A DNA stretch of 53,143 nt, from positions 1-53,143 of the IMG/VR virus record IMGVR_UViG_3300039412_000400; one strand, given 5' to 3'. Of the stretch, positions 14,794-49,719 are shown piece by piece. Each line of letters starts with the position of its first letter. Position 1 is the first letter of the stretch. The DNA comes from a virus. Its lineage: Duplodnaviria > Caudoviricetes. Below the pieces are notes generated by a model. That model did not search any database. It had not been told where the DNA came from and saw only the letters and a list, made by a program, of their open reading frames with translations. The position numbers and the translations under genes are program-made.

Positions 14794-16689
14794 ATGTCAA
14801 TAATAGATAAGCCATCAAAAAAACAATTAGAAAAATGGATGCATGATTGGATTGCACATGAATCTCCAGAAACGCCAGAAGAAGACGAGCGCGCCCGGAA
14901 GATTATTGAGTTTTTTGAGCAATATGGCATCACATTTGACAAGTTTAATCCAAAGAACTTTTCTATTTTTGATTCCACGGCATATCCCAATTATGATCAG
15001 TATGCTTATATACCAGGACAACACGATGTTAGAAAATGGCTTATGGCAGTTAAGAATATGCAATATATGCAAAAATCTGGTATGCCATATCGAGAAGCTA
15101 TTCGTGAATCAACCAAAGGCTGGAAGAAAATGGAAATCTATGATTTCCTAAATTGGCTAAAATATTATGAAGAAGGCACTCATATGAAATACAAATTTGC
15201 TCAATCTTATTATGTAAATGATTCTATGCCAGGATATTTTGTTCCAATTAGGCAGGACGTATCAAATGCAGATGACGTTGCTCCAGCTGATTTTGAGGCT
15301 GACCAACAAGCCGCACAGGAAAAGGAAGAAAAGAAACAAATCATCGCTCAACAGCGCAAAAAGATTCTAAGCAGACTTGACTCTATTAGAAAAATGTTGC
15401 GTTCAGAAGATGGCCGCACATTTGCCGGTGATGAACTTGAAACATTATTAGAGGCTATTCACACTTTAGAGAAAAAAATTAGCACATTAAACAAATTGAG
15501 CACGTCAATTCGTCTTTATGAAGATATGATTGTTCGTGAAGCTAATGTTCTTTACAGTAAAGGATTTAATAAGGCGGCTGATGCGCTATATACCGCAGCA
15601 CAAACGCCAGGAGCATCAGGGCAACAATTATCAAAAGGCCCACAAGCAGAACAAGATGCCCCGCCTCCATCAGCTCCACCTCCATCAGCGCCACCTGCAA
15701 TACCATCTGGCGAAGGCCAGACAGGAAGCTCTGGAGCAGTAAATGAAACACCAGCTGGAGTTGGCGCTCCAAATCCACAGTCACCGTCGGGTGGTGCAGA
15801 AACAACGCCAGAATCAAAGGGCCAAGAAATAGCTGTTGAAGATCCGCAGCCAATCGGTATCAAACAATTTATTGATGCAATGAATGGCCAAGAAGGAAAA
15901 ACAATAGAAGAAGAACATGCGACCGATGATGATTTAGAAGTTGAAGATGCCGATGATCAATTATTGGTTACAGAAGCGCAGGCTTTACCACCAAGACCAC
16001 CAGAAGCTGTTATGGAAGATTTGCCATTAACAGATGATCCTGCGCCCGCAAGAGGCAAACCAGCACAACTTCCAAGAGATCCGTTCATTGCAAAAGCTCC
16101 AGCTACAAAACCAGCAGTTCCATTTACTATGGATGAAGAGCCGCTGGAAGTTACTGAAGACGATCTTGAAACTCCAAAAGAAAAAGAAGCAGATAATGTT
16201 ATCCCAACAACCTCTAATTTTGACGTTAAAATAGATAAGGTTCTTGCCAGTGTAACTTTGGAAGATATCGTTTCAGAACTTGAAGATTTGGCAAAAGTAT
16301 TTAAGGTTAGGGAGATTCCACGAAGATTGGCGCTTGTTGATGTAATGTTAGATAGCAAGGGGCTTGCCTCATTCTTCCCACAATTATCTGAAGCCCAGAA
16401 TAAGAGTCTTGAAAGCAATAACTATATCTCAACTCGTATTGAAGATATACTTGCAAAGTTGCGCGGTGCCCTTGAAACAAAAGATATCGATCTTGAAGGT
16501 AAAGAACAGGAAGCAGCAGTAGATGCTTCTGGAGTTAAAGCCAAGTTACAAGAAGATGCCGCAAAAGAACAGCAACGAAAACAACAGCGTAAAGAACAGT
16601 CAGAAGCTGAATTGGCTACTCCCGAAAAAGAAACTCCAGAAATAGATATGGGCGAACTGGCAGGCCCAGTCGCAAGACCAATAGGTTGA
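14794..16689 (+). CDS. Large acidic/Pro-rich hypothetical protein, possibly head-internal
   Basis: 631 aa with Pro-rich and acidic linkers; carries KFAQ and ANVLYSKG motifs shared with other head-module proteins. Confidence 0.7.
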   Translation: MSIIDKPSKKQLEKWMHDWIAHESPETPEEDERARKIIEFFEQYGITFDKFNPKNFSIFDSTAYPNYDQYAYIPGQHDVRKWLMAVKNMQYMQKSGMPYREAIRESTKGWKKMEIYDFLNWLKYYEEGTHMKYKFAQSYYVNDSMPGYFVPIRQDVSNADDVAPADFEADQQAAQEKEEKKQIIAQQRKKILSRLDSIRKMLRSEDGRTFAGDELETLLEAIHTLEKKISTLNKLSTSIRLYEDMIVREANVLYSKGFNKAADALYTAAQTPGASGQQLSKGPQAEQDAPPPSAPPPSAPPAIPSGEGQTGSSGAVNETPAGVGAPNPQSPSGGAETTPESKGQEIAVEDPQPIGIKQFIDAMNGQEGKTIEEEHATDDDLEVEDADDQLLVTEAQALPPRPPEAVMEDLPLTDDPAPARGKPAQLPRDPFIAKAPATKPAVPFTMDEEPLEVTEDDLETPKEKEADNVIPTTSNFDVKIDKVLASVTLEDIVSELEDLAKVFKVREIPRRLALVDVMLDSKGLASFFPQLSEAQNKSLESNNYISTRIEDILAKLRGALETKDIDLEGKEQEAAVDASGVKAKLQEDAAKEQQRKQQRKEQSEAELATPEKETPEIDMGELAGPVARPIG

Positions 16690-16694
16690 AATGA

Positions 16695-18758
16695 ATGAAA
16701 CTGCGAGAACTTTTTCAAGAACTAACTGAAGTCCAAAAAGAACTTGGCATTGCCCCAGTTCTTATATGTGGTGGTACAGCCAGAGATAAATATATGGATA
16801 AGTTAGAGAATATCTCTGATGTCGATTTGACCAATGGCGAAAAGACAATGGATTATTTGTCTCAAGAGCTTGTTATTCAGTTAAGAAAAAAATATAATGT
16901 TACACGCAAAATTCATAAAGATCATAGCACAATTTTTGTTGGTAAATTAAAGTTAGACTTTTCTTCCAATTTTATGGTCCCCAATATAGACGCCATATTA
17001 GCAAAACTTGGTGTTACAAATCCGACTGATTTGCAAAGAGAAATGTATTCAAGAGATTTTACTTGTAATTCGTTGTTATTAACTCTTGATCTTAAACAGA
17101 TTTTAGATCCGACAAAACGTGGTGGCCAAGACATTGATGCAAAGAAAGTTAAGACATGTTTGGCCCCTGAAATAACTTTGGTTTCATATAAGAACAGAGT
17201 TATAAGAGCAATTTATCTTGCTTGTAAATTAGGGTTTGATATAGATGACAGTATTATTGAATATGTTCTAAAAAATCCGGCATCTGCCAAAATAGCAACT
17301 GAAAAAACTGTTATTGATAAACTTAATGCCGCTTTTGATAAAGATGCAGATAGGGCAAGTTATTATCTAACAAAAATGAATATTTGGAATCAGGTTCCAA
17401 TTATTGAAAAGGCCGCCCCATATTATAATCAAAGTCTAAAGAATACAACAAAATTGGCCTATTATCAAGGCGGTGGCGGCGTTAATGAACCAACGCCAGG
17501 AAAACCAAAATATGATGTTGATCCTGCAATTGTTGTTCAGCCTCATTTTGAGGAACCGTTCTATTACAATTATGATTATTTAGACACGGAAGGCATTGAT
17601 GGACAGCCACAATACGGTCCAGGAAGTGGCTGGGCGCATATGAACGAGTTCAAGAGTATAAAGGATTTTCTTGACTTCAGGCGCAAAAGATTAAAAAACA
17701 AGTACGTGGCTGACGACTCGTACATTGATGACTCGTCCGCAAATTATAAAGAACGCGTAGATAAGATGAAAATTCGGGCCAGTCTTTTATCCAAAATTAT
17801 AAAGACTGCAAAAAAAGAAGAACCAGAAACAGTTCCAGTTATCGAGCCAGATAATAATTGTTTTTTCTATGCAGCTATTATTGCTGCGCTTAATCCAAAG
17901 CTTAAGCTTATGAAGGGCCGACATACGGGACAACATAAAGAAGATACTGCACATTTTTGGGTTGAAAGTGAAGATGGAAAAATTACAGATCCAACCGCCT
18001 CTCAATATAAAGAAGGCCATGTTGAAGACGGAAAGCAGATAGATGTTCGTAAGAATATTGATGCAATTACTGGGCATAAGCTATTTTCATCATTACCAGA
18101 AAAATATCAAAAAAGAATTAAAGCTTTAAGTAAAGACGAAAATGATGGCCCCAATTTTGATTATGGTTCTGGCCTTTATATGAATATGGATAAATATAAA
18201 AGCATTAAAGATTTTGAGAAAAATAAACCAAAAGGCCAAGGCGCATTTTATAATGATGACAACAATATAGATTTTCCTGTTGATATTCAATCAGATACGA
18301 CGGCAGAATCACAAGCCGGCCCCATTCTTGGAGATTCAGAAACCTATCTTAAACCGGCTGTTATTGGTCCGTCTGTAGATGGAAATCCAAATGATGGAAT
18401 TATTCCAGGTTCCGTTGGTCTTGGTGATTTTACGACATATCCGCAGTCTAATCAATTAAGCGGATTCATGGATAGTTCTTTGCCACAGAACGATTTTGAG
18501 GGCAAACCACCGACAGAGCTTGATTTTGGAAGAGATTATACAGAAGATGTGGAGTTTCCCGGAACTCTTAATGAAGATGATTTAGAATCGCTTGAACATA
18601 AGTATCTAACACCGTCTGAAACTGACCTATTTGGCTTGCCAGATGGAATAGATCCAATTTCTGATGAAGACGCCGATGTTACTGTAAATAATAAGAATAC
18701 ATATTATGGAACTCCCGATACTGGAAGACAAATGTATGAAGATAAATGGAATATATGA
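16695..18758 (+). CDS. Class II CCA-adding/poly(A) polymerase-family nucleotidyltransferase with a long C-terminal extension
   Basis: CGGTARD, catalytic DVD, SRDFTCNSL, DPT.RG..DI and R.IRA...A.KLGF. The ~430-aa extension contains a Cys-His-Asp domain and a scaffold-like peptide. Confidence 0.85.
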   Translation: MKLRELFQELTEVQKELGIAPVLICGGTARDKYMDKLENISDVDLTNGEKTMDYLSQELVIQLRKKYNVTRKIHKDHSTIFVGKLKLDFSSNFMVPNIDAILAKLGVTNPTDLQREMYSRDFTCNSLLLTLDLKQILDPTKRGGQDIDAKKVKTCLAPEITLVSYKNRVIRAIYLACKLGFDIDDSIIEYVLKNPASAKIATEKTVIDKLNAAFDKDADRASYYLTKMNIWNQVPIIEKAAPYYNQSLKNTTKLAYYQGGGGVNEPTPGKPKYDVDPAIVVQPHFEEPFYYNYDYLDTEGIDGQPQYGPGSGWAHMNEFKSIKDFLDFRRKRLKNKYVADDSYIDDSSANYKERVDKMKIRASLLSKIIKTAKKEEPETVPVIEPDNNCFFYAAIIAALNPKLKLMKGRHTGQHKEDTAHFWVESEDGKITDPTASQYKEGHVEDGKQIDVRKNIDAITGHKLFSSLPEKYQKRIKALSKDENDGPNFDYGSGLYMNMDKYKSIKDFEKNKPKGQGAFYNDDNNIDFPVDIQSDTTAESQAGPILGDSETYLKPAVIGPSVDGNPNDGIIPGSVGLGDFTTYPQSNQLSGFMDSSLPQNDFEGKPPTELDFGRDYTEDVEFPGTLNEDDLESLEHKYLTPSETDLFGLPDGIDPISDEDADVTVNNKNTYYGTPDTGRQMYEDKWNI

Positions 18759-18804: not shown

Positions 18805-19773
18805 ATGACATTAAAAGCTAATGCACAGGAACAATTTACTATTTCCCCAGTTTCTCCGGCATCACAATTGCCTGCCGCAGATACGCACTTTGCAGATGGG
18901 CCATCTTTTGAGGTGGTTGAGGCTCCTGAAATCATAGATTTATTAGAACAAGGCCAGCATGATGGTTTGCCTATTGAAGTTGCAGATCAAGAAGCTCCGC
19001 TTGAAGTTGAAATCACCATTGGAAGACTTCCAGGTGCCCCAGATGATTCGCCAGAGCCACAGCCTCCAATTGAGGTTAGTGAAGAGCCAATTGACGTAGA
19101 AGATCAAGAAAAACCAGAAGACGCAAATGATGCAAAAAAGGGCAAGAATGATAAATGGAACTGGTCAAAACATGGGCCAACTGGATTTATTGCCTGGATT
19201 AAAGAACGTATTGATAACGTTCCAAGGCATAGCGGATTAGACACCGCAGGGCTTGAAAGAGCACAAGCTTATCTTGAAAAACTTGATAGCGAAATCTCAA
19301 AAGCCATGAGAATGGATTTGGATGAAGAATTAGACGCAAATCAGATTGAAAAAGTTCGAGCACAAATTGATGATGGCATTGCAAGACTTAATGCTCGTCT
19401 CGAAAAGGTTAAGAAAAACAAGAAATCTGTTCGTAGAAAGAAGTCAGAGTACGAATATGATGAAGACGGTTTTGTTAAAGAAGCGCAAAAAATTACTGGC
19501 GTTCAAGGAATTTTCGTTACCGTTCCACTTATGATTTCAAGTCTTGCCAGAACATGTATTAATGGTATGGTTTCTGCCGGTCACGATATTGAAAGAATGT
19601 ATGGCGATCAGGTTCAGAAATATAAACTTAATGACAGGGAACAGCTAGAATTACGTCAATGTCTATGGGATATGGGATATCCAATGCGCATTGATATGGG
19701 CGTTCAACCAGAAGAAGATCTTGAAGTTTCCGATAGTGATAATTATAACTGGGCCACAAACTATAAGGCATAA
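18805..19773 (+). CDS. Hypothetical acidic protein
   Basis: GAGG SD; KANAQ, DANDA and VKEAQ motifs. Confidence 0.75.
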   Translation: MTLKANAQEQFTISPVSPASQLPAADTHFADGPSFEVVEAPEIIDLLEQGQHDGLPIEVADQEAPLEVEITIGRLPGAPDDSPEPQPPIEVSEEPIDVEDQEKPEDANDAKKGKNDKWNWSKHGPTGFIAWIKERIDNVPRHSGLDTAGLERAQAYLEKLDSEISKAMRMDLDEELDANQIEKVRAQIDDGIARLNARLEKVKKNKKSVRRKKSEYEYDEDGFVKEAQKITGVQGIFVTVPLMISSLARTCINGMVSAGHDIERMYGDQVQKYKLNDREQLELRQCLWDMGYPMRIDMGVQPEEDLEVSDSDNYNWATNYKA

Positions 19774-20522: not shown

Positions 20523-22403
20523 ATGAAAACAGAAAATCAAGATCTATTTAGTGAATTCAAGGAAAGACTTCTTAGACTTGATTGTGTGACTTTTTGTGAA
20601 AAATATCTTACTTTAGATGGCTCACCTTTTACGCTGAGTGGGAATGGTTATAAACCCTTCAGTGAGATATACCGATATGTCGGAATTAAGGCTCTTGAGC
20701 CAAGTGCCAAGCCAATTATTATGGTTAAAGGACGTCAGACCGGTGCAACAACAATGGCCTCTGCTCTTGAAATGTATTTCATGGGTAGTGGCCTTTTTGG
20801 TGGCAATAGTGGCCGCCCACCAATTAGAATTATTCATGCTTTTCCACAATTAGAGCATGCCGCAACATACTCAAAGACCAAACTAAGCCAAATGATTTCG
20901 CAGTCAAAAATCATGGATGAAAGCAAAATCGTTAAAGGCGCTCGCCCAAAGTCATATATGCAGAGTCTTTTAGACCAGACAACCGCCACAAATGAATCTT
21001 TGCACTTTAAGCAATTTGTTGGCGGAAACCACTTATTCATTGAATCAACTGGCATTGACTCTGATAGAATCATGGGCCGAACAGCCGATATTCTTTTTTT
21101 TGATGAGGTTCAGAAAATTAGCCCACAGGCCATTGGTAATGCACTTAAAATTTTGACAGCTGCAAAGTATGGCAAACCCTCAAAAGGTGTCCAGGTATAT
21201 TTTGGAACTCCAAGACGTAAAGGCTCAGAGTTCTTTAAGATGTGGCAGAAATCTTCACAGCAATACTACTATCTTGGCTGCGAGAGTTGCAGACAATACT
21301 TCCCGCTTTATACTCCGGGAACAGATGAATGGGAAAAGATTTGGATTCATGGCTACATCGTTAGATGCCCGCATTGTAATCACGAACAAAATAAGTTAGA
21401 AGCAGCCGAGCGTGGCAAGTGGATTTCGACAAAAGATGTAGATGATCCAGATTGTGATATGGTTGGATTCCATATTAATCAACTTTATATGCCAATGTTT
21501 ACAAGAGAAGACATTGAAAAAGAAAAGCCGGGTAACCATCCAATTAATACAGAACGAGTTTTCCAGAATGAAGTTCTTGGAGAGTTTTTCCAGGGAGATT
21601 CGAGTCCTATTACGGCTGATGAAATCAGGGAAGCTTGCGGCGATATTGGAAGACGTTTTAGTGCAACGATTAAATCTACACCGGGACTAACACAGCAAAC
21701 TGCAGTTCTTGGTATTGACTATGGTGCAAGAGCAGACCTTGAACAAGCGGCAGATCCAGAAAAAGCAAAGCAATCTGGCCAATCATATAGCACGGCAGTT
21801 GTTCTTTTGAGCAAGGGTCCGGGGTTATTATCTATCGAGTTCTGCACAAAATTTAAGAAAAACGATCCAGAAAGCAAAAAGGGAATTATTGACCAACTAA
21901 TGAGACAATATAATATTCAGTTGGCAGTTGGAGATATTGGATACTCAAATGACTTCTCATATAATATGCAGATGGCATATGGCGACAGATATCTTGTTTC
22001 ACGTGCAGCTGGCAAACTAAATAACTACGTCAAGTTCAGAACAGACATTATCCCCAAGGAAATACAGTTTGAGCGCGATCATTATATTGCCGAACTATTT
22101 GAGCAAATGAAAAAGGGAATGATTCGATTCCCATTTGGTGATTATGAGCGTATTGCATGGCTTGTTGATCACTGCTCAAGCATGGAACTTAAACCATCTA
22201 TTTCGCGCACAGGCGGAGATCCTGTTGTCCATTATGTTAAGGGAGGCACTCCCAATGACGGATTTATGGCACTGCTTAACGCCTATTTGGCTTATAAGTT
22301 TTTGGTAAGTAAAGGTTTTACAAATAAAGATCCTGGAACCAACTCACTTGATGATCTAAATAAACCTTTAGTTTTAGCAGGATATGTGCCAAGACGAATC
22401 TAA
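20523..22403 (+). CDS. terL: Terminase large subunit (lambda GpA-like)
   Basis: Walker A-like KGRQTGATT, Walker B FFDEVQ, FGTP, a CxxC...CxxC insert, GFHINQLY, NEVLGE, and nuclease GIDYG ... NDG. Confidence 0.92.
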   Translation: MKTENQDLFSEFKERLLRLDCVTFCEKYLTLDGSPFTLSGNGYKPFSEIYRYVGIKALEPSAKPIIMVKGRQTGATTMASALEMYFMGSGLFGGNSGRPPIRIIHAFPQLEHAATYSKTKLSQMISQSKIMDESKIVKGARPKSYMQSLLDQTTATNESLHFKQFVGGNHLFIESTGIDSDRIMGRTADILFFDEVQKISPQAIGNALKILTAAKYGKPSKGVQVYFGTPRRKGSEFFKMWQKSSQQYYYLGCESCRQYFPLYTPGTDEWEKIWIHGYIVRCPHCNHEQNKLEAAERGKWISTKDVDDPDCDMVGFHINQLYMPMFTREDIEKEKPGNHPINTERVFQNEVLGEFFQGDSSPITADEIREACGDIGRRFSATIKSTPGLTQQTAVLGIDYGARADLEQAADPEKAKQSGQSYSTAVVLLSKGPGLLSIEFCTKFKKNDPESKKGIIDQLMRQYNIQLAVGDIGYSNDFSYNMQMAYGDRYLVSRAAGKLNNYVKFRTDIIPKEIQFERDHYIAELFEQMKKGMIRFPFGDYERIAWLVDHCSSMELKPSISRTGGDPVVHYVKGGTPNDGFMALLNAYLAYKFLVSKGFTNKDPGTNSLDDLNKPLVLAGYVPRRI

Positions 22404-22456: not shown

Positions 22457-24364
22457 ATGGGTTTAATTAAAAGATCAGGTTTGGGAAATGATGCGTCGTT
22501 TTCTGCAAGATATTTAGAAAATAGATCTACAGTGCCGCAAGTCAGTGCAATTATGGCCAATAGTATTTCGCAAGAAAGACGCGTAATTCTATCAGATGAG
22601 GTTGAGCAGGGCCGATTTATGGACGGTTCTCAGAGCTACAGCTATCTAAACGGCCGCCCCAACGTCGGAACAGATAATGGAAACGTAATTTGTTCTGTTG
22701 GTTTTAAGAAAAATGCCCAGTCTTTTGGTGGTGGTGGTGGTGGTGGTGGCGGTTTTAATCATGGCATGTCTGGTGACACAATTAAACAGATGCCAGAAGT
22801 TTATTCTCCGCTTTGGTTAAATAGTAATCTTAATATGCCACGAGATCGTGCGACTATAAATGCATGGTGTCGTTCATTTTTTGCGCTTAATCCATTTGTT
22901 CATAATGCAATAAGCCTTCACTCTACATATCCTATTAGTAAATTATCAATCAAATGTCCAAATAAAGATATTGAAAAGTTCTTTAATGATATGATTGAAG
23001 AAATTGATCTTATGAATATTTGTGTCCAGATTGCACAAGAATATTTCCTTCTTGGTGAGGCATTTGTATTTGCAGAGCTAGATGAAGGAAAAGGTAAGTG
23101 GGGAAGACTTCATATTCAGAATCCCGACTATATGATTGTTAAGCGTACAGTGGCAACTAGTGAGCCTATTATTATGTTAAGACCAGATGAAAATCTAAAG
23201 AAAATCATTTTCTCAAATCGTCCAACAGATATTGAACAACGCAAACAACTTAATCAGCACATTATCGAGTCAGTAAGACGTGGAGAAAATATTCCTCTTG
23301 ATAATTTTAACATCTCTCAATTGGCAAGAAGAATCAGCCCTTACGAGATTAGAGGAACGGGTCTTCCAGTTTGTATTTTCCGTCAATTAATGCTTTTTGA
23401 CAAGCTTCGTGAATCAAAGTTTGCACAAGCAGATAATATGATTAATCCTTTAACTGTTGTTAAGATTGGATCAGCAGATTTTAAGCCATCACTTGCGGAT
23501 CTTGAAGCCTGGCGCGCGACTTTTGAAGCAGCCGAATATGATAAGGATTTCAAGATTTTTACTCATGAGGGCGTTGACATTCAGAGAATTGGCTCTGGAC
23601 AAGGTATCTATGACATCTCTGGTGATATAACCCAGCTAATTAAAGAAATTTTAATTGGTCTTGAAGTGCCGCAGGTAATGCTTGATGGTGGCTCTGACAC
23701 AACATATGCCAATGGTGGCGTTGCTTTGGACGTATTGCGCCAGCGCTACATGCAATTCCGTAATATGATGTCAACATGGCTCAAGCGTAAGATTTTTGCT
23801 CCGATATCGAAGATTCAGGGCTTCTTTGATTATTCTGGTGGAGAAAAGCAGCTAATTGTCCCGGAAATTGACTGGAACCATATGTCACTATTTGATGCCG
23901 GTGACTATGTTAATAATCTTGTTCAGTTAAGTCAAGGCGGGCCAGATCAGAAGAGAGTCTCTCTACATACTCTTTATCGCTCTATGGGTCTTGAGATTGA
24001 AGACGAAAATCGAAAGATGCGTCAAGAGAATATTCAGGCAGAGATTGTTAAGAAGGAAGTTTCCGCTCTCGCGACAATGACACTTAACGCCCTACGTTCG
24101 TTGGATGATGAGGATGAGATTCCAGAGCCACCAGCACAGGTTGCACAGCCAGAAGCACCACTTCCAGGTGAAACTCCAGGTGGAGCGGGCGGCGGAATGC
24201 CAGACCTTGGACTTGGAGGAGGTTCCGCGCCTTCAATACCACCTATGCCGCCAAATAGTGGCGGTAGTTCGGCGCCTCCATCGCCTACACTTCCAACGCC
24301 CCCAATTAGCTCTAAACCAACAGGCGAATCTGCGGCACTACCGCCTCTTCCTCCAACTAAATAA
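22457..24364 (+). CDS. Portal protein
   Basis: Follows terL. NPFVHNAI..HSTYP, EYFLLGEAF, QNPDY, RGTGL, GLEVP and ANG..AL are portal-like motifs; Pro/Gly-rich tail. Confidence 0.85.
   Translation: MGLIKRSGLGNDASFSARYLENRSTVPQVSAIMANSISQERRVILSDEVEQGRFMDGSQSYSYLNGRPNVGTDNGNVICSVGFKKNAQSFGGGGGGGGGFNHGMSGDTIKQMPEVYSPLWLNSNLNMPRDRATINAWCRSFFALNPFVHNAISLHSTYPISKLSIKCPNKDIEKFFNDMIEEIDLMNICVQIAQEYFLLGEAFVFAELDEGKGKWGRLHIQNPDYMIVKRTVATSEPIIMLRPDENLKKIIFSNRPTDIEQRKQLNQHIIESVRRGENIPLDNFNISQLARRISPYEIRGTGLPVCIFRQLMLFDKLRESKFAQADNMINPLTVVKIGSADFKPSLADLEAWRATFEAAEYDKDFKIFTHEGVDIQRIGSGQGIYDISGDITQLIKEILIGLEVPQVMLDGGSDTTYANGGVALDVLRQRYMQFRNMMSTWLKRKIFAPISKIQGFFDYSGGEKQLIVPEIDWNHMSLFDAGDYVNNLVQLSQGGPDQKRVSLHTLYRSMGLEIEDENRKMRQENIQAEIVKKEVSALATMTLNALRSLDDEDEIPEPPAQVAQPEAPLPGETPGGAGGGMPDLGLGGGSAPSIPPMPPNSGGSSAPPSPTLPTPPISSKPTGESAALPPLPPTK
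22727..22753 (+). repeat. (GGT)7-GGC-GGT trinucleotide run encoding Gly9 in the portal
   Basis: Read directly from the sequence. Confidence 0.9.
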
Positions 24365-24374
24365 GTAAAAAAAT

Positions 24375-24794
24375 ATGAGAAAATGTAGAATCTGTAATAT
24401 TGAACTTACTAATGAAAATACTCATAATTATACAACAAAACAGCACCGCATATGTAAAGAGTGCGAAAGAAAGAGAAAAAATGATAAAAATTATAAAGAC
24501 AAAATCGCCCTTATAAAAGAATATGGCGGAAAATGCGTTTGTTGTGGAGAATTTGAGCCTATTTTTCTGACTATAGATCATATAAATGAAGATGGAGCTA
24601 AACATAGAAAAGAAAATGGCATATATGCTGGCGCAAGTTTTTATAGATGGCTTAAACAACAAGGATATCCAAAAGATAATTATCAAGTTTTATGTTTTAA
24701 TTGTAATTTTGCAAAACATGTATTAGGTAAATGTCCTCATCAACTCCCACCAGCAGGAGGCGCACCACCGCCACCCCCACCGCCAGCAAAATAA
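24375..24794 (+). CDS. HNH homing endonuclease with a Pro-rich tail
   Basis: YGGKCVCCGE...LTIDHI..DG..HR...YQVLCFNCN.AK...CPH. Confidence 0.88.
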   Translation: MRKCRICNIELTNENTHNYTTKQHRICKECERKRKNDKNYKDKIALIKEYGGKCVCCGEFEPIFLTIDHINEDGAKHRKENGIYAGASFYRWLKQQGYPKDNYQVLCFNCNFAKHVLGKCPHQLPPAGGAPPPPPPPAK

Positions 24795-30097: not shown

Positions 30098-33000
30098 ATG
30101 ACTGGGTTTATAAAACAAGGAGAGGCGCTAGAAATTAAGTTAGAAGATACTGCCTCTTGTATTCCAGAAGTCAGCGAAGAGATTTTGGAAGTCTTTAGAA
30201 AGACCGCTGCCGAACTTAAAAAAATCGCCCCAAAGGCTGATGATTTTTTGTATTTTAGTGCAACCATTATTCATGCTGCCGAAGCTTCTGCGCTTAATGA
30301 TGACGGAACACCTAAACTAAATCTTAAAGGTGAGGCCGTTAAGGTTGGTTGGGATACAAGCAATGATACCTGGAAATGGGTAACAAACGATCCGAATATT
30401 AAGCCATATAAGAACTCAAATGGCGATATTTTTCCAGAAGCAGAGCTAAAAAAAGCATATAAAAAGTGGCAACACAAACCGCTCTGCGTTGATCACAAAT
30501 CAAGCTCCGTAGATCATACGAGAGGATTTATTGTTGATACATATTACGACCGTAATCTAAAGAGAGTCGTTGCATTATGCGCATTAGATAAGGCCAACTA
30601 TCCAGAGCTTGCACGAAAGATTTCAACCAAGATGCAAACTGCAGTTTCAATGGGAACAGCAGTTGGCAGAGCCATTTGTTCAGATTGTGGCAGAGTCGCT
30701 CGCATAGAGTCCGACTTTTGCAAGCATATGAAGGACAAAACATGCTATGGTGAAATTAATATTGATCTAAATCCTATTGAGTTATCTATTGTAGTAACTG
30801 GAGCAGATCCAAAAGCACATATTAAACAAATTATTGCCGCAGCCAATACTATGAATACCTATTTAGAGAATAGGGCTAATGAATTAAAGAAATTAGCAGA
30901 ATATTCGGCAACTATTATAAAGAGTAATGGCGAACCGGGAAGCACGGTTAGACAGCAACAGTCTGTTGATGTGCATGGCAGCGATATTGAGGCTTTTAAG
31001 CAAGAAATTGATAGGGCACTTAAAGATTTAGATGAATTGAACGAAAATATTACAGAAAATACTAATAGTTCTGCATCTAATCAATCGTCGGGTTCGATTG
31101 CCCAGGATGAAGACGTGCCAGTTAGTGAAAATCCGGCCCTTCAACCGCCACCCGCAAGGCTTGCATCTGCTGACAATATACGTGAAGAGTCCGTATCTGA
31201 CTTTTATAAGGTCGCATCAGAAATTGAATCAAAACTAACTCAAATGAAAATAAGTTTGGATAAGTTATCACAAAATCTTTCTATTAAAACACAAGAGGAA
31301 AATATGTCTGGAACAGAAATCAAAAAAGAAGGTTACTATCAGGGCGCCGGTGGCGTAAACGAACCAACCCCAGGTCAAGTTAAGTACCCAAAGGATGGGC
31401 TTAACGAACAACTTCGTGAGAAGGAAGATAAACACATGACAGGCCAACCTCCTTTCCCAGAGGTAGGATCTGTTGATGGTATGCATCCATCTCCCGCATC
31501 AGTCGATCCGTCTGATGAATTGCAGCGCAAAAAGATGCTCGCTCGTGCGGAGTTAGAAGACCGTCAAATAAAGCGTGAAGCAATTGTGCAAACTGCCAAG
31601 GAAGCATTAGGCTACTGGAATGGTGGCGGTGGCGTTAATGAGCCAACCCCAGGCAAACCAAAGTATCCCAAGGATAAACTCAATGAGCAGCTTCGTGAAG
31701 ACGAAGATAAACAAATGGTTGGGCAGCCCCCATTCCCGGGTGTTGGCGCAGTCGATGGTTTGCATCCATCACCAGCATCTGCTGATATCAAGGATGAACT
31801 AAAACGTAAGGAAATGCTCGCTCGCGCTTCTCTAAAGGCACGTTTTAGCAAGGTAGCAAATAGTGATGGTAGCCTTAATAAGGCAGCTAGCGCATGGAAC
31901 GTTTATCTTGGCGACAAGCTTATTCTAACTGCATCCGTTTCCGATCTATGCAGCGGTAATGTTAATGATGTTCTTTATGACAGCATTGCCACCAAGCCTT
32001 TTGGTATTCAGCTAATCGAAAAGATTAAGGCTAATGGTGTAGATGCCGTTTCCAAGCTAATTAAGAAAGCACAGCCAATGCCTCCTCCAGGCGGTGATGC
32101 TCCTCCTCCAGTCGGTCCAGATATGGGCGCTCCTCCTCCAGGCGGTCCAGATATGGGCGCTCCTCCTCCAGAAGCTGGGCCTCCAGTTCCAGATACAGGA
32201 AAGACTGGCGATCCAAAGCAGACTGCTCTTAAGATGGCAGAAGACATGGTTTCCATGGCATCAGATTTACTCGAAGCTATTCGCGCACTAACTGGCGAAA
32301 AGGCAGAGATGGGCGAAGAAGGGCCAGAGGGCACCTCGGCTCCAGAAGGCATGTCTGCAAAGAGTGCGTCTGATAAGTTTAGTGCAAATACCCTATATTC
32401 CTTGAGAAAGGAACTTAATGGTGCGCTAACTCAAGCCATGAAGGAATCTCTTGCAGAGATTGACAATAGTCGTAAAGAATTAGAAATGATTGCCGGAATG
32501 TATGATGAAGGTTCTATCAATGATAGCAACTCAGACCTTACAGACTCGCTCATTCAAGATTCAATTAATGAAGCAAAGACTGCTATGGCAGACGGATTTA
32601 AGCTTATGACTGCTTTTGTTAAATATGCTCGCGGTACCAAGGCCATTATCAAGCGTGCAGAAGTTGAAGCAGGACTTCAATCACTTGCGGCCGAAGGAGA
32701 ACCCGAAATGAACGATGATGATACCAACCTCGCAGATCTACTCGATCAGAATAACGCAGATATTGATGAACTTGCCGGTCTATTAGCAGACGACGGTGAA
32801 GCAAAAGATAAAGATATAGGCGATCCACTACTCGAAGAGCTACTTTCAAGTGAGCTTTTAGCTGATGACGCCAATGATCTACAGGTTGATCCTGCAGGAT
32901 TAGATAAGCTACAAAAGGATCCAAATGCAAAGATAACTGTTGCATCTTACGATTCAAGACTTGGACGTCAGGCTCTTAGAGCAAAGCTTGCTGCTGATGC

Positions 33001-33706
33001 AACAGGCAAAGAGGAAGACGGAGAGATTCATGACATGTCAAGTCAGAAGTTTAGCGATATGCTTGATCAGGCTGATAAACTCACAAACGGACAGACCAAG
33101 CTTGATGTAAAGCCATCTGATAATCTTGGCTATGTTGAAACGCTTCCAGAAGTTAATGATGCTATGATGGATCTTGCAAAGGCTCCACCAAGTGTTAGAA
33201 AAGATGCAGCTGCTCTTAATCAGCTCATCAAGGAAGGTAAAGTTGATCCAGCAGACTTTGATGATCTAATTGCTCAGGGTCTTGATAAGGAAGCAGTTTC
33301 TTACTGGAAGAAATATTACGGTGAAGTTGAAGGCGGAAGCGAATTCGCCAGTGAACTTGTCAAGGAACATGTTAAGGCCGCTATGGCAGAGGAACTCAAT
33401 AAGTTTAAGGTTAAGCTAGCCCGCGCCTATGAGACCGCCTATGATATGGCAGACCGTGGTATGTGCAAGAGTGATAGAAACACTATCTCGACACAGGTTG
33501 ATGAAATCATGAAGTTTAGTGATGAAAACTTTGAGTCTCTCAAGAGAATCATTGCAAATCATGAACCAATCATGCGCAAAGAAGCAAATCGTATTCCACA
33601 AGTTGGATACAGAAGCGACAGTGAAATGACGGTAACGGCAGCAGTCGAGAGTGATGAGTTCTCAAAACTATCATCTGCCTTCGGAACCAAAAAGGGTTTG
33701 TTCTAA
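30098..33706 (+). CDS. Prohead maturation protease fused to a scaffold/core region
   Basis: N-terminal NSNGDIF...EL...PLCVDH...RGFIVD...VSMGT...ELSIV..GADP.A (HK97/herpes-fold phage proteases), followed by ~900 aa of acidic, coiled-coil, Pro-rich sequence. Confidence 0.75.
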   Translation: MTGFIKQGEALEIKLEDTASCIPEVSEEILEVFRKTAAELKKIAPKADDFLYFSATIIHAAEASALNDDGTPKLNLKGEAVKVGWDTSNDTWKWVTNDPNIKPYKNSNGDIFPEAELKKAYKKWQHKPLCVDHKSSSVDHTRGFIVDTYYDRNLKRVVALCALDKANYPELARKISTKMQTAVSMGTAVGRAICSDCGRVARIESDFCKHMKDKTCYGEINIDLNPIELSIVVTGADPKAHIKQIIAAANTMNTYLENRANELKKLAEYSATIIKSNGEPGSTVRQQQSVDVHGSDIEAFKQEIDRALKDLDELNENITENTNSSASNQSSGSIAQDEDVPVSENPALQPPPARLASADNIREESVSDFYKVASEIESKLTQMKISLDKLSQNLSIKTQEENMSGTEIKKEGYYQGAGGVNEPTPGQVKYPKDGLNEQLREKEDKHMTGQPPFPEVGSVDGMHPSPASVDPSDELQRKKMLARAELEDRQIKREAIVQTAKEALGYWNGGGGVNEPTPGKPKYPKDKLNEQLREDEDKQMVGQPPFPGVGAVDGLHPSPASADIKDELKRKEMLARASLKARFSKVANSDGSLNKAASAWNVYLGDKLILTASVSDLCSGNVNDVLYDSIATKPFGIQLIEKIKANGVDAVSKLIKKAQPMPPPGGDAPPPVGPDMGAPPPGGPDMGAPPPEAGPPVPDTGKTGDPKQTALKMAEDMVSMASDLLEAIRALTGEKAEMGEEGPEGTSAPEGMSAKSASDKFSANTLYSLRKELNGALTQAMKESLAEIDNSRKELEMIAGMYDEGSINDSNSDLTDSLIQDSINEAKTAMADGFKLMTAFVKYARGTKAIIKRAEVEAGLQSLAAEGEPEMNDDDTNLADLLDQNNADIDELAGLLADDGEAKDKDIGDPLLEELLSSELLADDANDLQVDPAGLDKLQKDPNAKITVASYDSRLGRQALRAKLAADATGKEEDGEIHDMSSQKFSDMLDQADKLTNGQTKLDVKPSDNLGYVETLPEVNDAMMDLAKAPPSVRKDAAALNQLIKEGKVDPADFDDLIAQGLDKEAVSYWKKYYGEVEGGSEFASELVKEHVKAAMAEELNKFKVKLARAYETAYDMADRGMCKSDRNTISTQVDEIMKFSDENFESLKRIIANHEPIMRKEANRIPQVGYRSDSEMTVTAAVESDEFSKLSSAFGTKKGLF
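31334..31828 (+). repeat. Two ~72-aa internal repeats, 279 nt apart, in the scaffold region
   Basis: YYQGAGGVNEPTPG...GQPPFP.VG.VDG.HPSPAS.D..DEL.RK.MLARA occurs at 31334 and 31613. Confidence 0.9.
32099..32171 (+). repeat. 30-nt tandem repeat (APPP[VG]GPDMG), about 2.4 copies
   Basis: gctcctcctccag[t/g]cggtccagatatgggc is repeated. Confidence 0.9.
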
Positions 33707-36958: not shown

Positions 36959-37018
36959 TTTCAGAAAACATGTAAAAATAAGCTAAACTCGTGTTATATA
37001 GTGTGTTGGAGAAGCAAA

Positions 37019-37834
37019 ATGTCACAAGACACAACACAAAAAATATGGTCGCTTTACAAAATTATTAACCTAATTAATGGAAAAATCTATATAGGACAGA
37101 CTGTACAGCCAGAAAAACGTTGGTATCAACATCGTAGAGACGCTGCTAATCCAAAATATCCTATACATTTTGCTATCAATAAATATGGGGCACACAATTT
37201 TGAGTTTGAAGTCATTGCGTCTTGTAAATCGCAAGATGATGCAAATTGTATGGAAGAAGAGCTTATTAAGCAATATGATAGTTTGGTAAAAAATGGCAAA
37301 GGATACAATATCTCGCTCGGCGGCATGGTAGCTCAAAAATCTGATGAATGGAAACAAGCATTAGAAAAATGGAGATCGTCACTTACTCAAGAAGAAAAGG
37401 ATGCTATAAATAAAAAACGATCTGACGCAACGATCAAACAAATTGAAACACAAGGCCACCCATCACTTGGTAAAAAACGAAATGAAGAACAACTAAAACA
37501 AATGAGTTTAACTCGTCAAGATCATCCGATAGAATATACAGAAGAAATTAGACAGCATATGTCGAAAGCGCATATAGGACTTAAAGACACTGAAGAAACA
37601 AAGAAAAGAAAATCGGAAAGCATCAAAAAATCATGGGAGAAGCGTCATCAAAATATGATAATGTCTGGTGAATTAAAATGTAATGCGCCTGGATGTAATG
37701 TTAGTGGTATAGTCAGTTATTTGATTGTAAATAATATTAGATATTGCTATAAGCATGGTGATCGTCTAAAACGAACTGGATTTTTAGAATTGCAGCAGAA
37801 GAAAACTAAATTAGAGAATAAAGACAATCTATGA
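37019..37834 (+). CDS. GIY-YIG homing endonuclease with NUMOD3-like repeats
   Basis: SLYKI.N.INGKIYIGQT...R...H...E...I...GYN, then TEE.R..MS.AH.G and TEETK.K.SES. Confidence 0.9.
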   Translation: MSQDTTQKIWSLYKIINLINGKIYIGQTVQPEKRWYQHRRDAANPKYPIHFAINKYGAHNFEFEVIASCKSQDDANCMEEELIKQYDSLVKNGKGYNISLGGMVAQKSDEWKQALEKWRSSLTQEEKDAINKKRSDATIKQIETQGHPSLGKKRNEEQLKQMSLTRQDHPIEYTEEIRQHMSKAHIGLKDTEETKKRKSESIKKSWEKRHQNMIMSGELKCNAPGCNVSGIVSYLIVNNIRYCYKHGDRLKRTGFLELQQKKTKLENKDNL

Positions 37835-46429: not shown

Positions 46430-47443
46430 ATGAATTTCTTTAACGGACAAGGCCAGCTTAATGCCGGCTCATTCTCAGAAGCTTTACAGCAATTAGTAAA
46501 ATATGCTTCGATCCTTGAGAATAATGTTCCAGCAAATCAAGGACTTGCGGGACAGCCTTCTATGAGTGACGAAGCCAGGGACGAGTTGATAGCGAGAGCT
46601 ATACAAACTCAGGACGGTAAGATCGCGTTAGCACAAGCAATGGCAAATCCGATCAGAAGGAATTTAGATTATCATGGAATTGCGAGACGTGCATTAGTAG
46701 TTGATCCATTACCACAGGGTGCCATTCCAACTTACGATAGAGATATCGATGTTACCGCAGTTGTAATCTCCTCAAACGGCACAGGCCCAGAGTCTCGTGT
46801 GTTTGGTGACAGAATTGTTGTTCCAGAATTTGAGGTTTTCGCGAACCCAACAGTCCGTATCGCAGAAGTCAAGCGACGCAGATTTAACGTTATTGACAGA
46901 GCGGTGCAGAAGGCTCGTCAAGAGATTATGGCCCAAGAAGATGCAAACATCTTTGCGGCACTCGATGCGGCATCAAACGTTGAAAACACGTTGACCGATA
47001 TCGCAGACTCAGGTCTACTCAAGAGGGACTTGGTTGAGATCAAGCAGCAAATCGACCGTTGGGACCTTGTCACCACAAAGTATTTCATGAATATCAATGA
47101 ATTCACTGATATCTTGAAGTGGGGAGCAGGCGGCGGACAAGGCGTAGGTGGCGGCGATTTCGATCCAGTCACAATGCGTGAAGTTCTACAGACTGGGCTT
47201 TATGCTCACATCTGGGGCACAGACATTATGGTCTCAAAGATCGTTCCACCAGGTAGCATCTATGGCGTAGCAGACCCTGAGTTTGTTGGAGTAATGCCTA
47301 TACGTCAAGACATCGAGGTTTTGCCAGCGGATGAACCAAAGCAGCTCAAACTCGGATGGGTCGTTAGCGAAATCATAGGCCTAGCGATCGTAAACCCACG
47401 TGGTTGTGCTTGTGGCCGCAAATCAGTCGTTATTGGCGCATAA
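46430..47443 (+). CDS. Major capsid protein (HK97 fold)
   Basis: AGGAG SD; 337 aa. ALAQAMANPIRRNLDY, QEDANIF.ALD, FMN...DILKW, VSKIVPPG..Y and GWVVSEIIG.AIVNP are capsid-like; it follows the scaffold/decoration genes and ends at a strong terminator. Confidence 0.85.
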   Translation: MNFFNGQGQLNAGSFSEALQQLVKYASILENNVPANQGLAGQPSMSDEARDELIARAIQTQDGKIALAQAMANPIRRNLDYHGIARRALVVDPLPQGAIPTYDRDIDVTAVVISSNGTGPESRVFGDRIVVPEFEVFANPTVRIAEVKRRRFNVIDRAVQKARQEIMAQEDANIFAALDAASNVENTLTDIADSGLLKRDLVEIKQQIDRWDLVTTKYFMNINEFTDILKWGAGGGQGVGGGDFDPVTMREVLQTGLYAHIWGTDIMVSKIVPPGSIYGVADPEFVGVMPIRQDIEVLPADEPKQLKLGWVVSEIIGLAIVNPRGCACGRKSVVIGA

Positions 47444-47649: not shown

Positions 47650-49719
47650 ATGAAAAAACTAGCAAATGAGCAGATTTCAGAAATTATCGCGCTATATCAA
47701 CAAGGCGTGCCGCCAAAAATTATTGGAGAAAAGTTTGGCATTTTTAATAACAGTGTTACGCGCATCTTACGTAAAAAAGGCATTGATCGCAATCAATTAG
47801 AAAAGGTTAATGATGAAGATGTCAAATACTTGATTGAACAATATATTGCTGGCAAATCATCTACACTTATAGCGTGTGAACTTGACATTTGCGATACTAC
47901 CGTTGTAAGGATACTCAGGCGCAATAATATTACTATACGGCCAAATGAAGATAATAAGCGAAAATACAAGATCGATCAAAATTATTTTCATGCCATTGAT
48001 ACCGAAGAAAAGGCCTATTTTTTAGGGCTATTATATGCTGATGGTAATTTGTCTAATACACGCCATGACGTAAGATTATGCCTACAAAAAGAAGATAGCG
48101 ATATTGTTGAGAAGTTTTCTAGAGCAATATATGGATTTGCTAAAACCTATCAAACGGAAGCTACATTGCAAGACGGATCTGTTAGATATTATGTAAACGC
48201 GCCAATATATAGTAAACAAATACATCACGATTTAGTTAAATTGGGGTGTACGCCGAATAAAGCATTTGATATTCGTGTGCCAACATTTTTGTCAGCAGAA
48301 TTGCTTCGTCATTTTATTCGTGGATATTTTGATGGCGATGGGTGTATTAGTATTGCTAATGTAAATAAGCCAGTAATTGACTTTAGTTCTAATGCTATTT
48401 TCATTAGAGAACTAATTCCGATTTTAGAGTCAAATGGAATTAAATGTGGCAAATTATGTCTAAATAAAGAGAACGAATTATCTGGAAGCGTTCAACTAAC
48501 AAGCCTAGATAATGTTGTAAAGTGCTATAACTATTTATATGATGGCTGCACTATTTATATGAACAGAAAATACAACACATTTCAAGAGCTGTTACGCGTG
48601 CAAAAAGACAAATGCGATCGTAAAACTGGTAAAATATGCAATATAAACAATTATGGAACAACATTTATACCAACATACAATGACACAATACTAACTAGTG
48701 ATAACATTAAAATTATGAGCGCCGAGCAAAAAGAAGATGTCGCACAGTTTTTGCTATCTTTTTATAGGCAGCATGGATTTCCATATCCAATACTGGAAGA
48801 CGTGGAATTGATACGACAATTTGCTGCACTTAAAAATACGAATGTTGATACGATAGAGAAAGATCATATATTGCGTACAGATAACCAGTCTGGCTCCAGA
48901 ATAACTCGACATTTTTCACCACATTTTTTCGAAGTAAAATCTGGTATTGATACTTCTTGGCCGAGCCTATTAGAAGCTTTTGAGAGCGATAAACTTCTAC
49001 TACACACCATCAAAAATAGATTGGGATATAACTATGGTATGACTGGAAATATGCTACGACAGGGGCTAGCAAACTCAAAAATAGCTTTCAAGGCTAGCAC
49101 ATTTAATACTGTTGTTGCTAAATACATTTATTCCAAATACACAAAAGAAAACAGCATAATTTACGACTACTCAATGGGTTTTGGACAAAGATTGACTGCA
49201 GCATTGTCGCTTCCATACCACATCAAATATGTGGGAGTGGATGTTTGGGACAAGTCATATGAAAGTAATCAAAAGATTTTTGCGTTCCTTAATAAAAATG
49301 TACCGTTTCTAAACAAAGAGGCAGAGCTTTATTGTATTGGATCGGAAAATTATTGTGCCAACGAAATGATTGGAAAAGTAAATGTTGCTTTTTCTAGCCC
49401 ACCATACTATATTTTGGAGCACTACACTGATGATGAAACGCAGGCATATGCTAGTGGCAATTATTTGAAGTTTTTAGATTGGTGGCGAGCAACTACTAAC
49501 AATGTTGATCGGCTATTGGCAAAAGATGGAGTATTCATTATAAACGTGAATAATATTGTGGATGGATTTAATATTGGCGAAGATATGTGCGGAATAATAA
49601 AAGAGAAAGGCTATGTTTTGGAGGAAACATATAGGATCAGGCTTACCAGAAACCTTCAATTTGCCAACAAAACCGGAACACACAAATATGAGCCAATTTA
49701 TGTTTTCAGGCGCGGCTAA
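47650..49719 (+). CDS. HTH-LAGLIDADG endonuclease fused to an amino-DNA methyltransferase domain
   Basis: Two HTH repeats, AYFLGLLYADG and RHFIRGYFDGDG, then SAM-binding YDYSMGFG and catalytic FSSPPY; AAGGAG SD. Confidence 0.85.
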   Translation: MKKLANEQISEIIALYQQGVPPKIIGEKFGIFNNSVTRILRKKGIDRNQLEKVNDEDVKYLIEQYIAGKSSTLIACELDICDTTVVRILRRNNITIRPNEDNKRKYKIDQNYFHAIDTEEKAYFLGLLYADGNLSNTRHDVRLCLQKEDSDIVEKFSRAIYGFAKTYQTEATLQDGSVRYYVNAPIYSKQIHHDLVKLGCTPNKAFDIRVPTFLSAELLRHFIRGYFDGDGCISIANVNKPVIDFSSNAIFIRELIPILESNGIKCGKLCLNKENELSGSVQLTSLDNVVKCYNYLYDGCTIYMNRKYNTFQELLRVQKDKCDRKTGKICNINNYGTTFIPTYNDTILTSDNIKIMSAEQKEDVAQFLLSFYRQHGFPYPILEDVELIRQFAALKNTNVDTIEKDHILRTDNQSGSRITRHFSPHFFEVKSGIDTSWPSLLEAFESDKLLLHTIKNRLGYNYGMTGNMLRQGLANSKIAFKASTFNTVVAKYIYSKYTKENSIIYDYSMGFGQRLTAALSLPYHIKYVGVDVWDKSYESNQKIFAFLNKNVPFLNKEAELYCIGSENYCANEMIGKVNVAFSSPPYYILEHYTDDETQAYASGNYLKFLDWWRATTNNVDRLLAKDGVFIINVNNIVDGFNIGEDMCGIIKEKGYVLEETYRIRLTRNLQFANKTGTHKYEPIYVFRRG

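Follow-up and report, generated by a model that had tools for sequence, protein, structure and literature searches.

The window analysed here is a 53,143-nucleotide stretch of Caudoviricetes DNA (positions 1 to 53,143 of IMG/VR record IMGVR_UViG_3300039412_000400). It encodes a nucleotidyltransferase (NTase) protein and a prohead protease-scaffold fusion that have a short peptide in common, once in the former and twice in the latter. A first-pass annotation, made from the letters alone, had proposed that this peptide is a portable docking or capsid-targeting signal through which an enzyme co-assembles with the scaffold. The features concerned are listed below, with aa for amino acids, ORF for open reading frame and pLDDT for the predicted local distance difference test score of AlphaFold2 models.

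16695-18758, + strand: 687-aa protein with an N-terminal class II nucleotidyltransferase domain and an NT_C part (PF01743; PHROG tRNA nucleotidyltransferase)
16695-17450, + strand: NTase head/neck domain, residues 1-252, with PDB sequence matches
17451-17750, + strand: conserved NT_C module of about 100 aa, from the consensus of 104 modules and of 34 locus-derived modules
17451-17525, + strand: NTase-side copy of the full 25-aa motif, KLAYYQGGGGVNEPTPGKPKYDVDP, containing the 18 aa at 17460-17513
17460-17513, + strand: NTase-side 18-aa copy, YYQGGGGVNEPTPGKPKY, residues 256-273 of the 687-aa ORF 16695-18758
18165-18215, + strand: second GxGxY..M..YKS[IV]KDF element in NT_C, in the window confined to ORF 16695-18758
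30098-33706, + strand: prohead protease-scaffold fusion of 1202 aa (ORF; PHROG head maturation protease)
30185-30997, + strand: protease domain, about residues 30-300, the most conserved part of the scaffold
31325-31873, + strand: tandem repeat of two units of about 93 aa (about 93-97), from sequence, spacing and predicted secondary structure
31325-31399, + strand: scaffold motif copy 1, 25 aa, pLDDT <50
31334-31387, + strand: scaffold copy 1, 18 aa, YYQGAGGVNEPTPGQVKY, in the 1202-aa ORF 30098-33706
31604-31678, + strand: scaffold motif copy 2, 25 aa, pLDDT <50
31613-31666, + strand: scaffold copy 2, 18 aa, YWNGGGGVNEPTPGKPKY, in the 1202-aa ORF 30098-33706

Translation of the window and a six-frame scan recovered the three 18-aa copies exactly where the first-pass annotation had placed them, preceded as it described by TKLA, KKEG and EALG. 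With up to 8 substitutions allowed, the scan found no further copy in the window. When the NTase protein was compared with the scaffold by BLASTP, two local matches were obtained (E 7e-9 and 3e-7), so the sharing of the peptide is not due to chance. The NTase copy is identical to scaffold copy 1 at 15 of 18 residues, 9 of which are encoded by different codons, and to scaffold copy 2 at 16 of 18 (8 codons different); the two scaffold copies agree at 13 of 18 residues (6 codons different). Nucleotide identity among the copies in the window is 72-78%. A similar synonymous divergence between copies was found in 6 relatives. Since synonymous sites differ while residues stay, both in the window and in these relatives, the identity of the peptide is kept by selection on the protein and not by a DNA signal. 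The earlier proposal of conservation at the protein level is thus borne out, with 6-9 codons differing per pair, and the same synonymous differences rule out recent gene conversion as the cause of copy identity.

The shared element proved to be 25 aa long, made up of the 18 aa together with 3 residues before and 4 after them. In a profile-profile comparison of 34 NTase-side modules with 36 scaffold repeat units, hhalign aligned the NT_C module with scaffold repeat 2 over 25 columns only (probability 98.7%, E 3.2e-16), reading K-x-A-Y-F-Q-G-G-G-G-V-N-E-P-T-P-G-K-x-K-Y-x-x-D-x, and detected no homology outside them. A faint V-x-Q-P-x-F similarity that BLAST reported after an 11-residue gap was unsupported by the profile comparison. 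The motif can be written as K-x-[AGS]-Y-[FYW]-[QL], then a variable Gly/Asn/Glu loop (canonically GGGGVNEP), then P-T-P-G-[KQ]-x-K-Y-x-x-D. What stays constant across variants is K at -3, a small residue at -1, Y-aromatic and P-T-P-G-[KQ]-x-K-Y-P-x-D, with the Gly-rich middle behaving as a variable loop. About 15 motif positions are near-invariant across scaffolds, and the flanks drop to 37-47% column identity. The first-pass annotation had likened the residues before the copies to a K-x-A motif. This resemblance holds in the scaffold copies of relatives, where A, G or S occupies -1 in 177/177 and K occupies -3 in 166/177, and fails at -3 in the third copy of the window (A-L-G).

We modelled the scaffold with AlphaFold2 in two overlapping parts, residues 1-610 and 400-1202 (mean pLDDT 59.8 and 62.4; shallow alignments of 41 and 56 rows). 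In both models the two copies appear as low-pLDDT stretches between confident helices, with values <50 at residues 394-423 and 505-520 in the first and at 400-423 and 504-518 in the second. Neither model showed any ordering of the motif against the protease or C-terminal domains in cis. Taken with the caution that such models call for, the 25-aa element is probably a short linear motif in a disordered stretch.

To describe the distribution of the motif we used a profile of 36 positions (A1) with a cut-off of E≤0.001. Against 1.84 billion representative proteins it gave 166 matches. The 150 matches listed comprise 107 protease-scaffolds, 36 members of the NT_C family and 7 others, the last being 2 scaffold-like fragments and 5 small proteins of 128-179 aa. 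Each of the five has a coiled-coil-like N-terminal part followed by the motif, and 4/5 also have an NT_C-like continuation and a poly-Lys end. We found no genomic context for these small proteins in viral contigs (P0366, alignment A7) or in metagenome contigs (P0366, P0360); a search of viral contigs with alignment A7 led only to scaffold and NTase loci at the two places checked. A scan of IMG/VR for DNA encoding the exact 9-residue core yielded 116 ORFs, 87 of them scaffolds and 29 NTase-side, and the variant Y-[YF]-Q-G-T-E-E-P-T-P-G yielded 36 (31 scaffolds and 5 NTase-side, NT_C). Neither the exact-peptide nor the variant scan revealed a third protein family with the motif. Among the 29 NTase-side ORFs, the NTase domain lies in the same ORF in 8 and not in the same ORF in 21. 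In five complete genomes of relatives, profile A1 gave 11 matches, of which 10 fall in the scaffolds, two per genome, and the remaining one in NT_C, a 362-aa ORF adjoining the NTase gene of genome G006. From the profile, IMG/VR and complete-genome distributions it follows that the motif belongs to two families, one of which is the scaffold. A full-text literature search with the motif strings, supplementary files being outside its scope, found no relevant paper among the hits listed.

The scaffold has 1025 homologs at E≤0.001. Its residues 111-213 match PHROG head maturation proteases (phrog_18299, E 7.7e-13; also phrog_4523, E 8.5e-6), and the protease part is 36% identical to gp19 of Bacillus phage G (tblastn, E 8e-23). 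No Pfam family was found in it at E≤0.01, and a PDB sequence search with the protease part returned nothing meaningful. In the model of the protease domain, most of residues 50-220 have a pLDDT of about 73-89, falling to <50 at 132-139 and 181-189. A fold search of the PDB with the 1-610 model gave no match at E≤0.001; T4 gp21 came out on top (E 0.089) and herpesvirus proteases were also among the matches, all of them weak. The gene labels of the first-pass annotation hold in part, backed by PF01743 for the NTase and by PHROG for the scaffold as a head maturation protease, with the scaffold lacking a Pfam family and resembling the T4 gp21 fold only weakly.

The C-terminal 600 residues of the scaffold are predicted in the 400-1202 model to be mostly long helices of 30-55 residues each. 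Each repeat unit runs in the order motif, short helix, conserved GQPPFPxVGxVDGxHPSP loop and long helix. Right after repeat 2, residues 579-657 (31832-32068) are predicted to form a small beta-sheet-plus-helix domain, which reaches the highest confidence in the C-terminal model (pLDDT about 84-91), followed at residues ~658-697 (~32070-32190) by a Pro/Gly/Ala-rich low-complexity stretch with the internal repeat GGPDMGAPPP. Along the scaffold, a conservation profile places both motifs level with the protease core. This profile is biased, however, because its sequence set was chosen by the motif. As an unbiased check we picked 120 scaffold homologs by the protease domain alone, independently of the motif. 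Both repeat units are kept in 120/120. Canonical motif copies number two in 80 of these proteins, one in 17 and none in 23; where there are two, they are mostly 97 residues apart (68 of 80). We aligned 27 of the 40 scaffolds with fewer than two canonical copies (the 23 with none and 4/17 with one), and in 27/27 both units are present. Their loops are variant, copy 1 reading Y-Y-Q-G-T-E-E-P-T-P-G and copy 2 reading A-Y-F-Q-N-G-E-G-P-N-N-P-N-T-P-T-P-G. These loops keep the Y-aromatic start and the PTPG-K-x-KY end.

A separate piece of the scaffold recurs elsewhere. ORFs of about 295 aa at two loci of relatives, L013 (G005:34804-34980) and L014 (G004:21348-21527), have about 60 aa in common with scaffold residues 1102-1167, at 33-37% identity to the C-terminal region (E 5e-10 and 1e-5). 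By sequence similarity this segment is a second scaffold piece shared with another protein. The window holds no ORF of this type.

The NTase protein has 154 homologs at E≤0.001. A PF01743 PolyA_pol head domain covers residues 24-152 (36.8 bits against a cut-off of 23), and the NTase domain matches CCA-adding enzymes and poly(A) polymerases in the PDB (best E 4.3e-9). The catalytic motif of class II nucleotidyltransferases consists of GG-x-x-RD and the carboxylates of D-x-D, and residues 26-45 of the translation carry GGTARD and DVDL. CCA-adding enzymes select nucleotides through an E-D-x-x-R motif. In the alignment to 9ns4_A, E-D-P-L-R of that chain stands opposite K-N-R-V-I of the NTase (about residues 160-175), and relatives have N-R-N-R-V-I-R or N-V-N-R-I-I-R at this position. 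Similarity to solved enzymes stops near residue 215, and the domain, which has no body or tail, extends only to 252. Judging from these comparisons, the protein may not be a CCA-adding enzyme.

The NT_C module that follows has a fixed order: the motif, QP-x-F-x-EPFY-x-NYD, GPGxG...[FY]KS[IV]KDF and a basic stretch. Its versions of the motif are Lys-rich (PTPKKKKYK) and lead into that stretch. The element G-x-G-x-Y..M..[YF]-K-S-[IV]-K-D-F occurs 1-3 times in NT_C proteins, in the window at 17649-17669 and 18165-18215, and the small coiled-coil proteins carry the KDF-type element as D-Y-x-E-G-P-Y-x-N-L-D-K-M. Of the 120 NTase-family homologs listed, about 108 carry the motif, 93 after the NTase domain, 13 within the first 102 residues and 2 as degenerate copies. 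Two homologs (P0044 and P0076) have two copies about 100 residues apart, like the scaffold.

The way in which NTase and NT_C are joined varies. The NTase is a separate ORF of 252-257 aa in L001, G006 and G007. In L001 and L005 (63% identical to the window protein over the best-matching segment) the 252-aa NTase ORF is overlapped by an ORF that starts M-E-N-K-K-A-Y-Y-Q-G-G-G-G. The two parts lie in different frames with an overlap of about 11-23 nt at the same junction in many relatives (L001 10001-12044; G006 and G007, which correspond to L143 and L144), and this overlap may be either a real split or a frameshifting site yielding both forms. In G007 the downstream ORF begins just past the motif position, with the rest of the module kept. 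Among NT_C-family representatives, the motif starts at residues 6-8 in 23/36. In four proteins (P0352, P0345, P0322 and P0331) it is preceded by a different N-terminal region, 63-166 residues long, which matched neither the NTase nor any Pfam family above threshold. At least four kinds of N-terminal region are thus attached to NT_C. Since fused, stand-alone, alternative-N-terminus and motif-less forms of NT_C all occur, the motif, as far as these alignments go, marks the joining point of interchangeable front ends with the conserved NT_C part. The view of the peptide as portable and discrete holds up well: it is an island of 25 columns, in two families only, at the junction of variable N-terminal domains with a conserved C-terminal part.

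We also compared the NT_C copies with scaffold copy 1 for two motif types, G (GGGG-V-N-E-P) and T (G-T-E-E-P). The 20 genomes with both genes include 14 G/G pairs, 4 T/T pairs and 2 discordant ones; there is one further T/T pair, in which the pairing of the two proteins was deduced. The T state falls in about three places on the trees, one built from the capsid protein and the other from the scaffold without its motif residues. Because the genes are linked, about 13 kb apart, inheritance as a block is an alternative explanation of the match. We regard the tracking of scaffold copy 1 by the NT_C variant as a hint and not as a result.

Both genes belong to a head-gene region with the following further members.

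20523-22403, + strand: large terminase (phrog_675, E 1.3e-52), just downstream of the NTase gene
22457-24364, + strand: portal (phrog_16240, E 1.5e-50)
46430-47443, + strand: major capsid protein (phrog_2522, E 3.2e-78), a candidate receptor for the motif

The scaffold gene is located between the portal and capsid protein genes. The NTase gene is found a short distance upstream of the terminase and portal genes, and about 13-15 kb separate it from the scaffold gene in 5/5 complete genomes. The major capsid protein has full-length matches 72-92% identical across 24 relatives. Related contigs of 29-121 kb are only 7-28% complete (CheckV) and the complete relatives have genomes of 406-481 kb (n=5), so the 53-kb window is a fragment of a huge phage. 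Relatives were reached via the records behind other loci; a locus search with the whole scaffold as single query returned none. In 50,697 phage records, tblastn with the NTase, scaffold and terminase gave remote matches only and no cultured phage close to the window.

Genes flanking the NTase gene, at 14794-16689 (631 aa) and 18805-19773 (322 aa), keep their order in relatives, and no Pfam or PHROG family was found for either. Pro-rich stretches in the 631-aa protein resemble the low-complexity stretch of the scaffold. In relatives G017, G009, G026, G030 and G023 (L243-L248) the major capsid gene was matched as 2-3 separate pieces with stops between some of them, as if interrupted by inserted elements. 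Endonuclease-like ORFs stand beside the head genes of the window, at 24375-24794 (HNH), 37001-37834 (GIY-YIG type) and 47650-49719. No tRNA genes were found in the window.

Starting from the observed limits of the motif, its distribution, the selection on its protein sequence, its predicted disorder and its modular context, we infer a role in head assembly. The explanation we prefer, although we hold it tentatively and at somewhat less than an even chance, is that the element serves as a disordered docking motif in head assembly, borrowed by NT_C proteins from the scaffold. Present twice per scaffold molecule, it would dock the scaffold onto another component of the assembling head, candidate partners being the capsid protein, the portal, and the protease domain or scaffold body of a neighbouring molecule. 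NT_C proteins would use the same docking site and so be drawn into the prohead along with whatever domain is fused to them, in the window a nucleotidyltransferase. The K-x-small residue before the motif is a possible prohead protease site, cleavage at which would free the N-terminal domain inside the head. A complex prediction in which scaffold repeat 2 (A2, residues 498-600) was paired with the major capsid protein (A3) scored 0.00 with controls not run, and counts neither for nor against.

Several observations weigh against this docking explanation. The NT_C copy is dispensable, being absent in 4/5 complete genomes, and the motif is absent from about 12 of the 120 listed NTase-family homologs (14 negative by pattern, 2 of these degenerate). 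The expectation that NTase homologs of relatives keep it therefore holds for most of those listed and not for the NTase/NT_C genes of these four genomes. In L002-L004 the fused protein is without the whole first module, though the scaffold of the same phage has both copies. The discordant genomes, G040 (scaffold T, NT_C G) and G023 (scaffold G, NT_C T), run counter to variant tracking, and the association rests on 1-3 independent contrasts and is not significant; with so few contrasts a sign test cannot reach significance. The structural models are of low overall confidence and low pLDDT is only an indirect sign of disorder. The docking partners are candidates only, in an uncultured clade, and the invariant small residue at -1 and the K at -3 fit a cleavage site equally well. 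Since the NTase domain lies outside the motif ORF in 21/29 IMG/VR cases, packaging of the enzyme would need a further interaction. The original idea of an enzyme co-assembling with the scaffold is thus possible for fused forms such as that of the window and is limited to these at most, because NTase and motif protein are separate in many relatives.

A related proposal, which we consider possible yet distinctly less probable than docking as such, is that the 25-mer is a cargo-loading tag mimicking the docking motif of the scaffold, and that NT_C uses it to bring exchangeable N-terminal domains inside the capsid, to be injected along with the DNA. If so, the cargo encoded in the window would be a truncated nucleotidyltransferase with a non-canonical nucleotide-selection motif, and elsewhere other domains would be carried. 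The phage would thus bring along an RNA-modifying enzyme ready for use, and the tag would offer a handle for packaging chosen proteins into megaphage capsids.

The main rival to docking is that the motif serves chiefly as a protease recognition site, cleavage cutting the scaffold for its exit and separating the NTase or other front end from NT_C, with the conserved residues downstream making a longer contact on the prime side or at an exosite. A small residue precedes the bond cut by herpesvirus assemblins, and the scaffold copies of relatives have A, G or S at -1 without exception and K at -3 in all but 11 of 177. The motif also sits at domain junctions of both proteins, two of the copies share a polypeptide with the protease, and T4 gp21 (top) and herpesvirus proteases are the fold matches, weak as they all are. 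Yet at least 20 conserved residues extend past the bond, far beyond usual protease specificity, and in stand-alone NT_C proteins the motif begins only 5-7 residues from the start, where a cut would serve little purpose. The third copy of the window has no K at -3, the 1202-aa scaffold has only two such sites, and, as a weak point, the pLDDT of <50 for the motif in the model of protease plus repeats is what would be expected if it does not pack on the protease in cis. We therefore think it rather unlikely that cleavage is the chief role. Cuts elsewhere in the motif are also unlikely: after Gln (Y-F-Q|G, resembling the tobacco etch virus (TEV) type), since this Q is L in 26/177 copies, and after Glu of N-E-P, since Pro comes next and the Glu is missing in N-type second copies.

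The motif could instead bind something outside the head shell on which both proteins depend, such as packaged DNA, a chaperone of the host or the phage, or a site of assembly at a membrane or elsewhere, and carry no encapsidation signal. Its combination of disorder and conservation would suit such a role, as would the Lys-rich NT_C versions with their basic stretch, and in T4 propeptides serve both core targeting and chaperonin recruitment, according to the paper on SPN3US (PMC10052503). A general signal would nonetheless be expected on more proteins than two families, one of them the scaffold, in genomes of 406-481 kb, and the scaffold version is not notably basic, which leaves binding outside the shell less probable still than a chiefly proteolytic role. 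Far more improbable is that the motif is a relic of an old recombination between scaffold and NT_C, kept as a flexible linker without a specific common function. The closeness of the two genes in one head-gene region and the Gly/Pro-rich composition, like that of many linkers, would agree with a relic. The near-invariance of about 15 positions between much more variable flanks argues against it, as does the fact that about half of the conserved codons differ synonymously between copies in a genome, and, unlike linkers, the element is kept in two families and several domain contexts.

Several known systems resemble the docking arrangement in part. The capsid targeting sequence (CTS) of T4 internal proteins, reportedly described by Mullaney & Black in 1996, is likewise a short peptide on otherwise unrelated proteins with a proposed delivery to the prohead core, although the analogy is functional only. 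As with the CTS, the motif is N-terminal in stand-alone NT_C proteins and adjoins a possible protease site. It differs in being about 25 aa long, in occurring also twice inside the scaffold, and in having the candidate site, K-x-A/G/S, at its N-terminal rather than its C-terminal end. Because this site lies before the motif, a cut there would leave the motif attached to the C-terminal product.

Protease-scaffold fusions or nested genes are represented by P2 gpO, lambda C/Nu3 and the C-terminal tail of HK97 gp4. The present protein shares with these an N-terminal protease, a C-terminal scaffolding or targeting part and a place between the portal and capsid genes, but is much larger (1202 aa) and has a tandem repeat and a motif in common with a non-scaffold protein. 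Encapsulin cargo-loading peptides are short, conserved and disordered, sit at the end of diverse cargo enzymes and bind the interior of an HK97-fold shell. The NT_C architecture has the same combination of variable cargo and constant tag, whereas encapsulins lack a scaffold bearing the same tag and use another sequence motif. The cleavage motif of SPN3US gp245 ends in Glu. In phiKZ-like giant phages, as described for the substrates of this protease, head and ejection proteins have propeptides of 20-254 residues that are cut off after a three-residue motif (PMC10052503). The likeness lies in the head of a giant phage that contains a prohead protease and numerous internal proteins, whose N-terminal regions are thought to guide assembly before being removed. 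Those propeptides are, however, defined by cleavage, and no common 25-aa motif is given in the passages that describe them. The present clade is also unrelated in sequence, with only the protease domain matching phage G gp19 (36%).

Because most clades of huge phages are uncultured, how they build heads with room for several hundred kilobases and choose the proteins that go inside is almost unknown. The motif provides a sharply defined handle on this process, as it marks a conserved contact of the scaffold and a second family with cargo-like variable front ends. If cleavage proves to be its role, it would be the first specificity determinant of this protease clade. If docking does, the motif would allow packaged proteins to be predicted by a sequence rule from megaphage genomes in metagenomes, and would serve as a tag with which to load proteins into such capsids.

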